Below are positions 47,590 through 53,070 of a DNA stretch of 64,000 bases, one piece after another; position 1 is the stretch's first letter, and every line of letters starts with the position of its first letter. The position numbers and the translations under genes are program-made. Source of the stretch: Verrucomicrobiia bacterium. Lineage in GTDB: Bacteria; Verrucomicrobiota; Verrucomicrobiia; Limisphaerales; UBA8199. The notes below the pieces were generated by a model. It did not search any database and was not told the DNA's origin. It saw only the letters and a list, made by a program, of their open reading frames with translations. The DNA is taken from NCBI GenBank assembly GCA_035946615.1, contig DASYZB010000116.1, positions 16,545 to 80,544 of the forward strand, given 5' to 3'.

Positions 47590-47985
47590 ATGGAAGCGAA
47601 GCCTGATTTCTTTTTGTCGGCTGCTGGAGAGAACGAGGGGCTTGCAAGCCCTCGTGCGTGTTGGAAAAAAGCACGTTTGAAAGACCCGGTGCGAGATGAC
47701 CACATGCTGGTTGAGATCGAGCCGTCGCTCATCGGGCAGAACTATGGGTTGGGAAGTCAAGACATCACGAATTTGATACTCTCGGCCCGGCACGAAGGCT
47801 TCTCGCTTTTTCCAGTCCAGGAATGGCCTTGCCACGTCTATGTTGCCCGCATCCTGGACGATACCATTACCCGGACACTGGCGTTTACACGGAGCCAGGT
47901 TGAAGTCATCGCGTGGGGAATGATTTTCCGCACTCTCCACGAAGCGAACACCCACGCCAAAAAGTTCCAGCCATGTCGTTCTTGA
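47590..47985 (+). CDS. hypothetical protein (131 aa)
   Basis: The ATG at 47590 is 1 nt after the upstream stop (tgagATG). Non-repetitive, protein-like composition. No family recognised. Confidence 0.5.
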   Translation: MEAKPDFFLSAAGENEGLASPRACWKKARLKDPVRDDHMLVEIEPSLIGQNYGLGSQDITNLILSARHEGFSLFPVQEWPCHVYVARILDDTITRTLAFTRSQVEVIAWGMIFRTLHEANTHAKKFQPCRS

Positions 47986-48344
47986 AACCATCGCGTAAAA
48001 AATCCGAGGAAGTCCGTGTCCCGGAAATCCGGTTTTTGGGCGAGCAAGACGGCCCTCCCGAACGACTTTTGAAGGACAGGCTTGCTGACTTTTTTCGCCG
48101 CGACAGAAGTGTCAGCAGGGCGTATTTGGCACGGGTTGATTTTGGCGAAGGAAAAGAAGCCAGTGTGGTGTTGGCGTTGTGAACGCAGTTTGGCCCCGAC
48201 AAAGACATGGTCGAGAAAGTGGGCACAATCTTCGCGGACGTTTTTAACGCCAAGGAACACCTGGACATCATGTTCCTGACAGACAGCCAGGAAGCGCAAT
48301 TAGCGAGGGCGTGCAAACCATTCTTTGATGAATCAGCGGCCTGA
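47973..48344 (+). pseudogene. SseB C-terminal-domain-like small protein interrupted by an in-frame TGA
   Basis: '...RAYLARVDFGEGKEASVVLAL*TQFGPDKDMVEKVGTIFADVFNAKEHLDIMFLTDSQEAQLARACKPFFD', with the TGA at 48180..48182. Both halves together resemble a single SseB_C-type domain (by recollection). Confidence 0.5.
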
Positions 48345-48347
48345 CTT

Positions 48348-48590
48348 TCACGTTGAGCCTTTGGCAATGGGCGTGATGGTGATGGAGGCGACGAAGGGCA
48401 TGTGGCGGTCAACCTCGGCGTAGCGTTTGGCGAGGGCACGAACGGCGGCCAGGTCGTTTTCCTGGAGCTTGTCGGCCAGGAATCCGAGCCGCCAGCCCAA
48501 CAGCACCACATCGGCGGTGGAGAAGGCGAGCGCGAGTTTTTGCGGCGGCTCGTTCTTGTCGTCGCCCGCGTCCGGGTTGGGTTCCAGCAA
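48348..48590 (-). CDS. hypothetical small protein (possible gene remnant) downstream of the DNA methyltransferase
   Basis: 80-aa ORF with a TTG start, no obvious Shine-Dalgarno sequence and no ATG. Its composition looks more protein-like than the antisense ORF 48402..48602. Confidence 0.3.
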   Translation of the reverse strand: MLEPNPDAGDDKNEPPQKLALAFSTADVVLLGWRLGFLADKLQENDLAAVRALAKRYAEVDRHMPFVASITITPIAKGST

Positions 48591-48598
48591 GTATTCGA

Positions 48599-49654
48599 TT
48601 AACTGCTGGGGCCGCTCTCGTGGAAAAGGCCTACGGCTTCAAGCAAGCGAGCATGGGCTCTGGCGAGATACTTCCCCTCGATATCCACGCCAATGCTGTT
48701 GCGTCCGGTATTCAAGGCCGCAAGGGACGTCGTGCCGGCGCCCACAAACGGGTCCAGCACGGTGTCGCCGGCAAAGGAAAACATTTTGATCAAGCGCTGG
48801 GCCAGGGCAAGTGGGTAAGGGGCGGGGTGGCCGTTGCGGGTGGATTCGCCGCGGATATCACTCCAGGACGAGCGCATCCAGTTCTGCATTTCCTCCCTGT
48901 TCAACATCGAGAGCGCGCGCTGGACCGGTGAAGGGGAGCGGTATTCGCCGCCTTTGCGCAGAAAGAGGATGTACTCAACATCGTTCTTAATGATTGCGCC
49001 CGGTTGGTAGGGTTTGCCGTAGAAGCCGGCCCCATTTCCCTGAGCTTCGGTGGCGCCGTTGGCGATCTTTTGCCAGAGAATCGGGGTAAGACAATCCAGG
49101 CCGAACCTGCGAGCGCACACCTGAATATCGGCGTGCAGGGGCATAACGTGATGGCGTCCATTCTGCTTGCGCGGGAGGCAGACATCCCCTACCACGCAGC
49201 AAATGCGCCCGCCGGGCGCTAGCACCCTGGCGCACTCTTGCCAGACCTTGTCCAGTTGATCGAGGAAGCTCTCGTAATCAACAATGGCGCCCATTTGAGC
49301 CTCATTGCTCTCGTACTCTTTCAGCGTCCAGTACGGCGGGGAAGTCACGACGAGGTGGACGCTGCCGGTGGGAATCCATTCCAACCGGCGCGCGTCGCCC
49401 AACTGCAGGCGGTGCGTCGTCACGTCGAAGGGAGCGGGCCAGGGGGAATTGCGCAGAATAGCGTTGGCGCGGAGCATTTTTTCGACCGCGCCGGGTTCGT
49501 TATCTGCCTCGGGCAGCCCTTCGAGGATATGTTTGATGGAATCGAGGGTCTCGCGCAGCGCCGCCGGAGCTTCATTGTTCGGTGGATAGGCCTTTTTTTC
49601 GCGAGTGCCACGGCGGCGGCTGTTCTGAACCGGGTTGCCTGCTGAACTGCGCAT
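48599..49654 (-). CDS. beta-class DNA amino-methyltransferase (SPPY motif; N4-cytosine or N6-adenine)
   Basis: Motif IV 'LVVTSPPYW' precedes motif I 'VLDPFVGAGTTSLAA', which is the beta-class order. No intact restriction endonuclease gene is adjacent. Confidence 0.85.
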   Translation of the reverse strand: MRSSAGNPVQNSRRRGTREKKAYPPNNEAPAALRETLDSIKHILEGLPEADNEPGAVEKMLRANAILRNSPWPAPFDVTTHRLQLGDARRLEWIPTGSVHLVVTSPPYWTLKEYESNEAQMGAIVDYESFLDQLDKVWQECARVLAPGGRICCVVGDVCLPRKQNGRHHVMPLHADIQVCARRFGLDCLTPILWQKIANGATEAQGNGAGFYGKPYQPGAIIKNDVEYILFLRKGGEYRSPSPVQRALSMLNREEMQNWMRSSWSDIRGESTRNGHPAPYPLALAQRLIKMFSFAGDTVLDPFVGAGTTSLAALNTGRNSIGVDIEGKYLARAHARLLEAVGLFHESGPSS

Positions 49655-49765
49655 GGGCTGAGTATTGCGTCATGAACCGAACCGTAAAGGAGAAATTGCG
49701 GCTTGGACGGGCGACAGCTCTATCTCGGTGTGTTGATGCCGATGATCATCAGGCCCCGAATGCGC

Positions 49766-50275
49766 CTACTGCCCAATATCCGATTCGCCTAACTGTTCGT
49801 TGAAGTCACGCTGCCCACCGTTGAATAAGGCGGCGTCGAACCCGTCCTCGAGTTTGATCGCTTTAACTGAGACGGCTGCAGCAGCCGTCAGATGCTGGAC
49901 GAATTTGAACATCGTATCGCTGTCGTCCGTCACAACGAACTCCGCCCCGGCAAGTTGGGCTTGGGCTATGAGCTTCAGGTCGTCCTTCAGGGCATCGCGG
50001 CTGAGCCCTGCCGCAGCGTAGCGCAGCTTGTGCAACTCTGCGCTCTTCAGGGCATCCTGGTAATTGAACGGAAGGACGACACAGTGGCGCAGAATCTCAG
50101 GCCCGAGCGCCTGTTTCACGCTGAATTCGGACACCACTATAGTCGAAAGGTACAACGGGACTTGGTTCTCCAGGAAATACTTCCAGTACTGCTTAGCCGC
50201 CTGGTGGTTGGCGCGGTCGCGGCCAGCCAGTGTGATTAGGAAACTGGTGTCGAGCAGGGCACCAGCGGGCATCAT
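49766..50275 (-). CDS. PIN-domain nuclease (VapC-like)
   Basis: The ATG at 50275 overlaps the upstream TGA (ATGA). Acidic quartet contexts 'LLDTSFLI', 'VVSEFS', 'LKDDLKLIAQA' and 'VVTDDSD'. Confidence 0.75.
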   Translation of the reverse strand: MMPAGALLDTSFLITLAGRDRANHQAAKQYWKYFLENQVPLYLSTIVVSEFSVKQALGPEILRHCVVLPFNYQDALKSAELHKLRYAAAGLSRDALKDDLKLIAQAQLAGAEFVVTDDSDTMFKFVQHLTAAAAVSVKAIKLEDGFDAALFNGGQRDFNEQLGESDIGQ

Positions 50276-51054
50276 GAGCCTCCCCTCAGGTCTCGGACCC
50301 AAGCAGCGGCGTTAGGTACGTCAGCCCAGGCCTTCGTTCCCTCCTCAATGAACTTTTCCAGTTCCTGTTCGTTGTAGCTAGGGTCGTACTCTTCAAAATC
50401 AATCAAGCGGATGTTGCGCAACTCCCCCGTCCGGCTGTGCTGTTCGGCGCGGACGCGAAGCAAGGCTTTATGGTAAAGCCGGTTCTCTTTCTGCTCGCGC
50501 AGGAGTTCCTCGCTCGCACCCACGATCTGAATTCGTCCTGTGCCCTCCACGGCCAGATGCACGTTGGCCCTCTGGGCTCCGCCCATATCCACAATCCGGC
50601 CAAACAGGTATTGTTCCACGGCGACCCAAGGCGTCGTTTTCCCGACATGGTAGTCCGTGGAGCCGGTGACCTGCACTTTCGCGGGCGCTTCTCCCGCCGA
50701 CCTCACTTCGTACTGCAGGTCCTGGTCGGACTTGGCGCGGGCCTGCCAGCGCTGGATGATCTTCGCGCGCTCAGGATCTATTTCACCCAGCGAGTCCTGG
50801 CGATTGAGCCGCTGCAGGTCGGGTCCGAAACTCGCCAGGAGAGAGGCAGTCAGGACGACCTTCAGTCTGTAGGAACCCTCCTCCACCCGGACCCTGGCCT
50901 CTGTCAGCTTGAGCGCTCTTTGGCTGCCGACGATGAGGTCCTCGACCTCGGCATTGAACTGGTTGAACAGATGAAGGCCGATGGTCTGAGGCGTGATGTC
51001 CACGCCCTCCAGCTTGCCACGGAGAATGAATTCAACTGTTTGTTGCCGAGCCAC
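50272..51054 (-). CDS. 260-aa protein of unknown function, translationally coupled to the PIN gene
   Basis: GTG start at 51054. No recognisable domain. The C-terminal tail 'GTKAWADVPNAAAWVRDLRGGS' resembles the C-terminal ends of some PIN-associated antitoxins. Confidence 0.65.
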   Translation of the reverse strand: MARQQTVEFILRGKLEGVDITPQTIGLHLFNQFNAEVEDLIVGSQRALKLTEARVRVEEGSYRLKVVLTASLLASFGPDLQRLNRQDSLGEIDPERAKIIQRWQARAKSDQDLQYEVRSAGEAPAKVQVTGSTDYHVGKTTPWVAVEQYLFGRIVDMGGAQRANVHLAVEGTGRIQIVGASEELLREQKENRLYHKALLRVRAEQHSRTGELRNIRLIDFEEYDPSYNEQELEKFIEEGTKAWADVPNAAAWVRDLRGGS

Positions 51055-51078
51055 AGTGTTCGTGAAGCAAATCGCTTA

Positions 51079-51361
51079 CCGAAATCTACTCCATGAGATG
51101 GTCACACAGCAAGCCCCCGGCGTCGCGCCATTCAAACCGACCGGGATGACATTGCTGATGAAGTCGTAAAACTCCCGTTTGTGCTGGATGAAGCGAACGG
51201 GCGAAGTCCGCCTCCGTCAGCTTTTCGACGGCCTGCTCGCAGGCTGATTCGGGCAGGGTAGGATTGAGGCGCTTGAGAGCGGCGCGGAGATTCCGGCCGA
51301 GGATGACTTCGCGCTCGCTGGCGCGGCTGAGAGTGCCCGCTTGCGGTCTCTCGTTTTCTGG
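51079..51361 (-). pseudogene. type I restriction enzyme R subunit (HsdR) N-terminal fragment, frameshifted
   Basis: 'GTLSRASEREVILGRNLRAALKRLNPTLPESACEQAVEKLTEADFARS' is followed, after a 1-nt frame change near 51190, by 'FIQHKREFYDFISNVIPVGLNG'. This is the conserved HsdR N-terminal pattern (LraALerLNP...Aieel). No helicase region follows. Confidence 0.55.
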
Positions 51362-51591
51362 CGCGTCATAATGTCAGCTTTGGAATGGGACTACCCGTTC
51401 GGCGATGGGCTACTGGAAATTTCCGGTGGCCCTTCGTTTTTTACGTCATGGGGCGGCATTTTGTCGAATTGCAAAAAGGAAGATAGCGGGTTCGTTCTGG
51501 TTTGATTAAAACCGGTAGCTGCTCGAAAGTGGGTGGCGTTAACCTTTAAGCGAACGCGCCAGACGAACCGTCCGGCCACGACATCGATATT

Positions 51592-53070
51592 ATGCAACGC
51601 CTTTTCCAGACTTTTGTTCCCGCTCTCTGTCTTCTGGCACACGGCGCGCCGGGCCAAAGCAATGACGCCCTGTTCCACCGAGCGACGGCGGCCCTGGAGG
51701 CTGCCATACCACGCGCGCAGGCTGACCCCGCCCATCCCATATTTCATGTCGCCGCGCCCGCGCAATGGATGAATGACCCGAACGGGCCGATCTTTTACAA
51801 GGGCTTCTATCATCTTTTTTACCAGTTGCATCCCTTTAGCGACGCGAGCGGGCCCAAGTATTGGGGCCATGTCCGCAGCCGGGACCTGGTGAAGTGGGAG
51901 CACTTGCCCATCGCCTTGTGCCCCTCGGTAGAATCGGGCGAGGCGGAGGTGTGGTCGGGTTGCTGCACGGTCAATGGGCGAGGCCAACCTATGATTTTCT
52001 ACACCAGCATCGCCCAGGGCCGCTCCGCCATGGACCACTCGGAACAATGGGCCGCCACCAGCGACGATGACTTGATTCGCTGGCACAAATGTCCTTCCAA
52101 CCCGGTGCTTTCTGAGGCGTTGCACGGTGACAGGAAAATCTACGACTGGCGCGACCCGTTTATTTTCCACGCCGGCGGCAAAACGTTTCTCGTCGCGGGC
52201 GGCAATCTAAACAAGGCGAAGGGCGGGCAGGCCGTGGTGAACATTTATCAGGCCCAGAACGCCGAGTTGACCCAATGGACCTATCGCGGCGCGCTGTTTC
52301 AGCATCCGGACTCCGAGGCGCGCACGGTCGAGTGCCCGAACTTTTTTCAACTGGGCCGCCAGTGGGTGCTGCTGGTGTCGCCTTATGGAAGGGTGCAGTA
52401 TTTCATAGGCGATTTTGACGAGGCGACTTGCCGGTTTCACGCCCGCGCGCGCGGGCTGTTGGATTACGGGCCTGGCTTTTACGCCCCCAACACGATGCAG
52501 GTCCCCGATGGCCGGCGCCTCGTGTGGGGATGGGTCAACGGCTTTCCTGGCGGGCACGGCTGGAACGGCTGCCTGTCTTTGCCCCGGCAGTTGAGCTTGT
52601 CCCGCGAAGGTCGATTGCGTCAGGAACCTGCGCCGCAATTGAGCCGGCTGCGGGGCCAACCGAGCAAGTGGCGAAATCTCTCGCTCTCGGAGCATGGCGA
52701 GGTTCTGACCTTGCCCAAGACGAATACGCTGGAGGTTTTGGTCAGGATTGATTTGCGAAGTGGAGGCAAAATTGCCCTGGAATTTGCCAGCGCCGGCAAT
52801 GATGCGCCCCCGCTTGAAATGAGCTTCGACGGCTCGGACCTTGGCGTGATGGGGACAAAAATCGCGCTCTCTTCCGTGGGGAGCCGCCAGAAACTAAGCC
52901 TCCGGGTTTTTATTGATCGCTCGGTGATGGAGGTTTTCGCCAATGACAGCGCGTGCTTCACCCGGACGATCAAGCCACTGGCTGCGAATGTTACCTTGTC
53001 GATGCGGGCCGAGCACGGCACGGCCCGGGCGCAACTGGTTGAAGCCTGGCCGATGCAGACGATCTGGTAG
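51592..53070 (+). CDS. glycoside hydrolase family 32 (beta-fructofuranosidase/levanase-type), secreted
   Basis: 'WMNDPNGPIFYKGFYHLFYQ' (nucleophile motif), 'WRDPFIF' (RDP) and 'VECPNFF' (EC motif). Confidence 0.9.
   Translation: MQRLFQTFVPALCLLAHGAPGQSNDALFHRATAALEAAIPRAQADPAHPIFHVAAPAQWMNDPNGPIFYKGFYHLFYQLHPFSDASGPKYWGHVRSRDLVKWEHLPIALCPSVESGEAEVWSGCCTVNGRGQPMIFYTSIAQGRSAMDHSEQWAATSDDDLIRWHKCPSNPVLSEALHGDRKIYDWRDPFIFHAGGKTFLVAGGNLNKAKGGQAVVNIYQAQNAELTQWTYRGALFQHPDSEARTVECPNFFQLGRQWVLLVSPYGRVQYFIGDFDEATCRFHARARGLLDYGPGFYAPNTMQVPDGRRLVWGWVNGFPGGHGWNGCLSLPRQLSLSREGRLRQEPAPQLSRLRGQPSKWRNLSLSEHGEVLTLPKTNTLEVLVRIDLRSGGKIALEFASAGNDAPPLEMSFDGSDLGVMGTKIALSSVGSRQKLSLRVFIDRSVMEVFANDSACFTRTIKPLAANVTLSMRAEHGTARAQLVEAWPMQTIW

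Follow-up and report, generated by a model that had tools for sequence, protein, structure and literature searches.

The window analysed here is a stretch of 64,000 nucleotides (nt) from a Verrucomicrobiia bacterium (contig DASYZB010000116.1 of assembly GCA_035946615.1), in which two overlapping genes on the minus strand encode an uncharacterised protein, designated A, and a PIN-domain nuclease. Residue numbering throughout is that of the window's own proteins, and the features of the locus are collected in Table 1. The end of gene A and the beginning of the PIN gene share a single ATGA tetranucleotide, and both the coordinates and the overlap reported for this pair in a first-pass annotation, made from the sequence alone, were found to be correct. 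The start of A was called at GTG, the first possible start codon past the preceding stop. For the PIN frame, an alternative reading of 178 amino acids (aa) started from TTG is also open. With slightly better than even confidence, the pair is read here as a self-contained, mobile two-gene PIN cassette of the toxin-antitoxin or abortive-infection kind, which is frequently carried as cargo by ATP-dependent restriction systems.

Table 1. Coordinates of the A-PIN module and its flanking features in the window.
Feature	Position	Strand	Description	Basis
Gene A	50272..51054	-	260 aa; GTG start, TGA stop at 50274..50272; uncharacterised family	
PIN gene	49766..50275	-	169 aa from ATG; classed as a divergent VapC-like subfamily	
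ATGA overlap	50272..50275	-	PIN start codon and A stop codon; translational coupling	Read directly from sequence
A residues 1-112	50719..51054	-	Acidic alpha/beta N-domain, predicted ferredoxin-like (beta-alpha-beta-beta-alpha-alpha)	AlphaFold2 model
A residues 141-224	50383..50634	-	Predicted basic OB-fold, beta1-beta2-beta3-alpha-beta4-beta5	AlphaFold2 model and Foldseek
A residues 225-260	50275..50382	-	Acidic two-helix tail with W243...W252...R257 motif; proposed PIN-binding segment	
hsdR 5' stump	51079..51373	-	Type I hsdR, frameshifted, directly 5' of A	Three-frame translation and HsdR matches
Beta-class N6/N4 DNA methyltransferase	48599..49654	-	Context only; no conserved partner of the pair	Pfam and PADLOC

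The PIN protein matches Pfam PF01850 at 33.2 bits over residues 7-120, against a gathering cut-off of 23.6, and carries a C-terminal extension of ~40 aa. The earlier identification as a PIN nuclease is borne out by alignment, since the acidic active-site residues D9, E50, D99, and D118 are all present and are invariant in 25 PIN sequences, down to 26% identity. Given this invariant catalytic tetrad, the nuclease should be active, and the sequence leads us to expect a metal-dependent enzyme with a complete acidic active site. The score against the NCBIfam VapC model TIGR00028 is 20.1 bits, below the curated threshold of 73.6, while the closest solved PIN structure, VapC20, is matched weakly by the family profile (E = 0.13). 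On these sequence comparisons, the protein is a divergent, VapC-like PIN subfamily.

Protein A had been described at first pass as lacking any recognisable domain or known family, and at the sequence level that description held. No match was obtained in Pfam (best E = 0.044), nor was there any sequence match in NCBIfam, PADLOC, PHROGs, or the PDB sequences, the last searched by phmmer and with the family profile. When 64 diverse family members were each scanned against Pfam, no recurring family emerged, and no description of the family was found in the literature. It is a large family. More than 141 close homologues, all of ~258 aa, are annotated as hypothetical, and an exhaustive profile search returned 731 clusters at 50% identity with E <= 1e-3, or 463 at E <= 1e-10. 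Among the 150 best clusters listed, most members are of the same length, the shorter ones span just part of the profile, and none is long enough to represent a fusion of A with PIN. Conservation extends along the whole length of the protein in the homologue alignment. In the broad alignment, which reaches down to 22% identity, the positions kept are G60 and S61 in the N-terminal region, G152, G158, G159, N164, H166, and Y194, which are near-invariant in the central region, and W243, W252, and R257 close to the C-terminus. The last three are retained in at least 90% of the 64 representatives over the same range of identity. The final ~20 residues, already singled out at first pass as antitoxin-like, are therefore among the most conserved parts of the family.

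Full-length A was modelled with AlphaFold2 on a 46-sequence alignment, giving a mean predicted local distance difference test score (pLDDT) of 85.8. Within the model, residues 143-221 display the classical topology of an oligonucleotide/oligosaccharide-binding (OB) fold. The 50 matches listed from a Foldseek search of the PDB were mostly OB-fold proteins or domains, the best ones included. Among them are the ExoVII subunit XseA, the mitochondrial single-stranded DNA-binding protein (SSB) Rim1, IF1, the anticodon-binding domain of lysyl-tRNA synthetase (LysRS), and cold-shock domains, together with the OB domains of DNA ligases, RPA, Teb1, and Stn1. The median isoelectric point (pI) of this segment is 9.1, in contrast to 5.4 for the N-domain and 4.6 for the C-terminal tail, whose two helices occupy residues 229-242 and 249-256 of the model. 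A nucleic-acid-binding fold, an OB domain at residues ~141-224, is thus predicted in A, and the earlier statement that no DNA-binding fold can be recognised in the protein is probably wrong. When residues 1-135 were modelled alone, an alpha/beta sandwich was obtained with a pLDDT of 85.5 and a predicted template modelling (TM) score of 0.80. Its Foldseek matches in the PDB were ferredoxin-like and weak (ACT domains, IS200 transposase, and aIF2-alpha; E >= 0.03, TM <= 0.48), and because they are both weak and mixed, no function is assigned to the N-domain. Overall, three modules are predicted in A, in the order ferredoxin-like N-domain (acidic), OB-fold (basic), and two-helix tail (acidic).

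Structural matches extending over nearly all of A came from just two phage proteins among the predicted viral structures of BFVD, A0A8S5QA00 and A0A8S5T657 (Foldseek E = 1.6e-7 and 2.9e-7 over 267-298 columns, with a TM of only ~0.3). The former is annotated as DUF6575, a domain which the aligned part may or may not represent. DUF6575 is a domain of one anti-phage system described by Vassallo et al. 2022 (PMC9519451). Neither the Pfam DUF6575 model nor the PADLOC models gave sequence support for a link with A, and the supplement of Vassallo et al. 2022 does not list it. The relation is retained here as a lead only.

The association between the two genes was assessed in two independent samples, one composed of GTDB species genomes searched with A (78 loci) and the other of metagenome contigs searched with PIN (72 loci with room upstream). 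Individual loci are cited below by their labels. The PIN gene directly follows A in ~68 of the 78 genome loci, most exceptions being contig ends, and A lies directly upstream of PIN in 71 of the 72 metagenome loci. In relatives, the two frames mostly overlap or are separated by a gap of no more than ~10 nt. As the pair recurs in more than 140 independent loci, it is far from a chance pair of open reading frames (ORFs), and the tightly coupled PIN module proposed at first pass is indeed conserved as neighbours in other genomes. The hosts of the 78 genome loci comprise Verrucomicrobiota, Planctomycetota, Lentisphaerota, Burkholderiales, other Gammaproteobacteria, Bacteroidota, and a few others. 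Moreover, over 9171 pairwise comparisons among 136 pairs, the identities of A are correlated with those of PIN (r = 0.93), the two diverging at almost the same rate. Both are inherited as one unit, and A is as constrained as the enzyme. In an exploratory analysis of mutual information between the two proteins, with ~89 effective sequences, 94 of the top 100 pairs involve positions of A beyond 100.

The cassette decays in an asymmetric manner. In L005, L045, L024, L030, L049, L168, and L046, an intact A is accompanied by a PIN gene that is lost, cut short, or frameshifted. The converse, an intact PIN with a damaged A, occurs in two cases only, and the C-terminal part of A is kept in both. The first, L102 (4110-4883), is the sole one of the 72 metagenome loci with an intact PIN and no A upstream. 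Its upstream ORF of 84 aa ends in '...PDAAQWVREVRGG', which corresponds to the last 12 residues of A joined to unrelated sequence. In the second, L074 (1693-2724), a 175-aa variant of A begins with an unrelated N-terminus of ~55 residues, continues into the OB-fold and the tail, and adjoins an intact PIN gene and an hsdR fragment. Judged from the sequence of this variant, the ferredoxin-like N-domain is dispensable in at least one lineage. Such asymmetry would be expected were PIN harmful wherever the C-terminal part of A is absent.

Several copies are located outside any restriction setting. Stand-alone copies are flanked by unrelated housekeeping genes, for example ychF, queA, hflX, dus, ribD, and lipA/lipB. 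On plasmid pA of Bordetella bronchiseptica (NZ_CP132331.1; L090, 3326-4591), an A homologue of 28% identity is accompanied by a PIN gene (Pfam PF01850, 24.1 bits). This plasmid is a 39-kb circular phage-like element with YqaJ recombinase fragments and many small ORFs, and both genes are hypothetical in the PGAP/RefSeq annotation. In Achromobacter sp. M1 (CP159308.1; L046, 10001-11263), which alone in the set is a cultured isolate with a complete genome, A has remained intact and the PIN frame breaks after ~45 codons, so that the toxin may be a pseudogene. The cassette there appears to adjoin a tRNA gene, judged from spurious ORF translations typical of tRNA. Stand-alone, tRNA-adjoining, and plasmid-borne copies of this kind indicate the mobility typical of toxin-antitoxin modules. 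A tblastn search of 50,697 phage records yielded no credible match (best E = 2), and apart from the Bordetella plasmid a single IMG/VR contig was found; true phage carriage looks rare.

The connection with restriction-modification (R-M) systems was examined using hsd profiles built from the hsd genes of L002 and L038 (Prosthecobacter). Within 10 kb of the genome loci, hsdM, hsdS, or hsdR was found in 35 of 78 cases, nearly always co-oriented and adjacent, and hsd genes stand beside the pair, mostly co-oriented, in 14 of the 31 metagenome loci of at least 6 kb. The order hsdM-hsdS-A-PIN-hsdR is recurrent (L002, L006, L008, L009, L023, L026, L038, L117, L122, L130, L170, and others), often with a few nt between the PIN stop codon and the hsdR frame. 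In a clade of Burkholderiales, a single-chain Type ISP enzyme (Type_ISP_C, E = 3e-83) is located directly upstream of A, and lipA/lipB lie downstream. Altogether, ~45% of loci are situated within type I operons or follow immediately on Type ISP genes. The R-M setting suggested at first pass is therefore real and much stronger than the window sequence alone could show, with the reservation that the methyltransferase proposed as part of it is no conserved partner.

The gap between hsdS and hsdR also hosts other genes, including DUF3800, DUF488, HIRAN, TPR, and IS200 genes, and AAA_13 in L048. From this variability, the gap is regarded as a cargo hotspot in which A-PIN is the recurrent tenant next to hsdR. 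Cargo between hsdS and A can be observed in L101 (2867-5108), L035 (1584-4041), L009 (9201-9656), and L039 (9081-9830). In the mosaic type I locus L048 (5801-13103), hsdS precedes a 742-aa ATPase of the PrrC/RloC type (AAA_13, E = 1e-136), and A comes next. The gene after A is not PIN and encodes a SocA/Panacea-domain protein (E = 3e-16). Farther along, the last ~45 residues of A occur a second time, joined to a Macro-domain ORF that is succeeded by a DUF3800 gene. As read from the sequence, this arrangement points to exchange of partners and to recombination at the A tail. A stand-alone Verrucomicrobiota copy, L084 (6794-8001), has ~1.2 kb without a called gene upstream of A, possibly what is left of decayed hsd genes, and a type II R-M pair (N6_N4_Mtase and a BglII-like endonuclease) is located ~4 kb away.

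In the window itself, only remains of a type I system are present. The hsdR stump, ~95 codons long and frameshifted on three-frame translation, matches full-length HsdR ORFs of related loci (phmmer, E = 8e-22 to 1e-5) and the locus-derived HsdR profile (E = 4e-22), whereas its score against Pfam HSDR_N, 16-19 bits, lies below the cut-off of 25.1. The stump noted at first pass is thus genuine, shared with the relative L082, and somewhat differently placed, being upstream (5') of A and not downstream, with the approximate extent given in Table 1. A profile search detected neither hsdM nor hsdS anywhere in the 64 kb, which rules out a working or recently working type I system, and farther out the neighbouring genes encode a GH32 hydrolase and glycosyltransferases. 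With no hsdM or hsdS and with non-defence neighbours, the locus is a small remnant, and its earlier description as a defence island was overstated. The methyltransferase is well supported as such (Pfam N6_N4_Mtase, E = 4.8e-39; PADLOC MTase_II, 1e-58). As a partner of the cassette it is ruled out, since the relatives L081, L082, and L083 (77-91% nucleotide identity) carry other genes at that place.

Some of the history of the locus can be followed in its closest relative, L082, which is 91% identical in nucleotide sequence over window positions 51341..49733. L082 has the same upstream hsdR stump (122-380) and, downstream of PIN (1714-2652), a second hsdR 5' region containing a 312-aa HSDR_N ORF that is 82% identical to the window stump. 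With two hsdR 5' copies, the cassette is bracketed in that lineage by direct repeats of the hsdR 5' end. Speculatively, this sequence pattern would be compatible with a cassette inserted by one crossover inside hsdR. In the window, the methyltransferase stands where L082 has its downstream hsdR copy, that copy having been replaced. L081 and L083, at 77% identity, have neither the hsdR stump nor the methyltransferase, and it follows that the methyltransferase is a chance neighbour and that the cassette outlives its R-M host. The window cassette looks intact and probably persists as a stand-alone module.

No flanking direct repeats were found around the module in the window by a repeat search. 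The G+C content of the module (59%) is close to that of the window (58%), and its base composition is not atypical. Promoter and terminator scans over 48400-51700 returned no more sites than shuffled sequence did, and the sole Rfam match, a snoRNA at 20.6 bits against a threshold of 40, is noise. Between the hsdR stump and the GH32 gene, a G+C-rich palindrome with an 11-bp stem (51403-51442) is followed by a T-run on the plus strand. It is terminator-like, no obvious plus-strand gene ends there, and the number of such sites in the region does not exceed that in shuffled sequence. In the ~1 kb stretch downstream of the methyltransferase (47600-48590), overlapping ORFs occur on both strands (for example 47906-48511 on the minus strand; 47913-48182 and 48207-48344 on the plus strand). 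They have no Pfam match and may represent a cognate restriction endonuclease or a decayed gene, so that the methyltransferase can only tentatively be called solitary.

The interpretation of the pair as a mobile PIN cassette of the toxin-antitoxin or abortive-infection kind draws on the active-site tetrad, the ATGA coupling, the near-constant pairing, the correlated divergence, mobility, asymmetric decay, and the near-invariant tail motif. The predicted OB-fold with its basic pI, the embedding in R-M operons, and the precedent of prrC in a type I locus point in the same direction. In solved complexes of FitA and VapB with their toxins, an Arg-type C-terminal residue of the antitoxin inserts into the PIN active site. 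By analogy, A would form a complex with PIN via its C-terminal tail, with W243, W252, and R257 as the contact motif, and the tail would occlude the acidic active site. The OB-fold, if the model is right, would bind nucleic acid, which could be the cassette's own operator, its own mRNA, or the RNA attacked by PIN. Loss, titration, or conformational change of A would then release or redirect PIN, and the released nuclease would cleave RNA and arrest growth. The slot occupied by the cassette between hsdS and hsdR is the one that prrC occupies in EcoprrI, which makes it plausible that, inside R-M operons, the cassette might act as a second-line RNase and/or as an addiction module for the R-M locus.

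A number of points weigh against this interpretation. Binding and inhibition of PIN by A are inferred. At 260 aa, A is 3-4 times longer than a typical VapB, antitoxins being ~70-90 aa, and none of the AbrB, ribbon-helix-helix (RHH), Phd/YefM, or helix-turn-helix (HTH) DNA-binding domains of antitoxins was found by Pfam in the 64 family members. A is also as conserved as PIN, and together with its length this is no less compatible with an active part, for instance in sensing or in recognising the substrate, than with that of a passive plug. The Foldseek E-values behind the OB-fold are weak (3.8e-3 to 0.1, with a target TM of ~0.5). The mutual-information signal is confounded by phylogeny, the clade structure being strong. 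The counts behind the decay asymmetry are small, and most of the genomes concerned are metagenome-assembled, in which frameshifts can be assembly errors. Furthermore, PADLOC-DB v2 returned no family at E <= 1 for either protein, and ~55% of loci stand alone, with no R-M gene within 6-10 kb.

A more ambitious version, which we consider possible and advance tentatively, is that A-PIN constitutes an unrecognised anti-phage guardian of R-M systems, or abortive-infection system, with A as a three-module sensor. What the OB-fold or the ACT-like N-domain would sense is nucleic acid from a phage, an anti-restriction protein, or an adjacent type I or Type ISP enzyme that has failed; sensing by A would then free the PIN RNase. 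The related first-pass proposal, a sensor or decoy domain in the N-terminal region that releases PIN on infection or stress, is neither favoured nor disfavoured by the weak ferredoxin/ACT-like matches of that domain. The pair would in that case be a two-protein functional analogue of PrrC without homology to it, distributed over Verrucomicrobiota, Planctomycetota, Lentisphaerota, Burkholderiales, Gammaproteobacteria, and Bacteroidota.

The strongest competing explanation gives A the role of a targeting subunit instead of an inhibitor. The predicted OB-fold, which resembles the anticodon-binding domains of class IIb aminoacyl-tRNA synthetases and domains of SSB type, would recruit a specific RNA, such as a tRNA anticodon loop, or single-stranded DNA, and A and PIN together would form a two-subunit nuclease controlled from elsewhere, for example by the R-M complex as with PrrC. 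The length of A, its slow evolution, and the OB-fold fit this explanation equally well as inhibition, inasmuch as A is conserved over its whole length and changes as slowly as PIN, its OB-fold is basic, and many of the Foldseek matches are LysRS anticodon-binding domains, IF1, cold-shock domains, and SSB. The place taken in type I operons is also that of an anticodon nuclease, PrrC, and R-M-linked PIN genes without antitoxins were interpreted by Matelska et al. as suggesting another mode of regulation (PMC5499597). The likeness to anticodon-binding OB domains is, however, weak and generic. About half of the cassettes stand alone, where no R-M enzyme is present to silence them, and an orphan A is tolerated whereas PIN essentially never occurs without at least the tail of A. 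A targeting role is judged rather unlikely.

Considerably less probable is a role of the cassette as an accessory or regulator of R-M, either by processing hsd mRNA to set the R:M ratio at establishment or by modulating the HsdR or Type ISP motor (restriction alleviation). The geometry is suggestive, as in many loci the cassette is directly upstream of hsdR with a few nt from the PIN stop codon to the hsdR frame, in others it is directly downstream of Type ISP genes, and it is usually co-oriented and probably co-transcribed with the R-M genes. The prevalence of loci devoid of R-M genes nevertheless opposes such a dedicated function, as does the window itself, which like its close relatives keeps the pair intact where R-M is decayed or absent. 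The unrelated cargo in the hsdS-hsdR gap (DUF3800, DUF488, HIRAN, IS200, and AAA_13) also argues for a hotspot and not for a dedicated regulator. A housekeeping pair for rRNA or tRNA maturation, composed of a nuclease and an RNA-binding cofactor with no role in conflict, is very improbable: some copies do lie among genes such as ychF, queA, hflX, dus, ribD, and lipA/lipB and both proteins are strongly conserved, but the distribution is patchy across distant phyla, the flanks differ even between relatives of 77-91% identity, pseudogenisation is frequent, one copy is on a phage-like plasmid, and enrichment in R-M operons is strong.

Should the mobile-cassette interpretation be true, a large unannotated family (the 731 clusters above) would be the near-constant partner of a distinct PIN subfamily, and the regulators of PIN nucleases would extend beyond small DNA-binding antitoxins. 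It would provide a second, non-homologous case of what PrrC exemplifies, an RNase carried within a type I restriction operon, as well as a new defence-system candidate in the poorly studied PVC-group phyla (Planctomycetota, Verrucomicrobiota, and allies). The cassette would moreover lend itself to studying what bacteria use as a back-up when phages inhibit restriction. Its fixed slot by hsdR or after Type ISP genes makes this back-up question testable using anti-restriction proteins such as Ocr, ArdA, or Stp. If A is merely an unusually large antitoxin, the outcome would be a useful annotation without conceptual advance.

Compared with known systems, the cassette would be VapBC-like in its working and is prrC-like in its position, yet it belongs to neither group. 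Its likeness to VapBC and FitAB lies in a PIN protein with four conserved acidic residues, a partner gene upstream with a 4-nt overlap, mobility, a patchy distribution, frequent loss of the toxin, and a conserved C-terminal segment of A with an invariant Arg. Apart from its length, A differs from those antitoxins in having a predicted ferredoxin-like domain and OB-fold in place of an AbrB, RHH, Phd, or HTH domain, and in evolving as slowly as the toxin. The PIN protein, for its part, falls below the NCBIfam VapC cut-off and bears the C-terminal extension, and the ~45% of copies embedded in R-M operons set the cassette apart as well.

PrrC is a nuclease embedded in the type I R-M locus EcoprrI and follows a second-line logic (PMC1484252; PMC12707154). 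The resemblance to PrrC and RloC is that an RNase gene is located inside a type I hsd operon, between hsdS and hsdR in relatives, the window keeping the hsdR stump only. A nuclease serving as a second strike, brought into action once restriction is compromised, would be well placed there (PMC1484252, PMC12707154). In contrast, PrrC and RloC are single proteins combining an ABC-ATPase with a C-terminal anticodon nuclease, while the cassette consists of PIN and a partner with a predicted OB-fold and has no nucleoside triphosphatase. PrrC-type nucleases are kept silent by the R-M complex, switched on by a phage anti-restriction factor, and directed at a tRNA anticodon loop, properties that the cassette may or may not share. 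Neither A nor PIN matches PrrC, RloC, or AAA_13 in PADLOC, Pfam, or NCBIfam, there being no homology, and the AAA_13 protein beside A in L048 is a separate gene. Moreover, PrrC is always linked to R-M, and about half of the cassette copies are not. Matelska et al. 2017 (PMC5499597) reported PIN-like genes inside hsd operons, in transcriptional coupling with type I R-M subunits and in some cases with no antitoxin that could be recognised. That study does not contain the A family, its architecture, the near-constant pairing, or the fixed hsdM-hsdS-A-PIN-hsdR order. The general link between PIN genes and type I R-M systems is accordingly already known; the A family, its architecture, its pairing with PIN, and its fixed position appear to be new.

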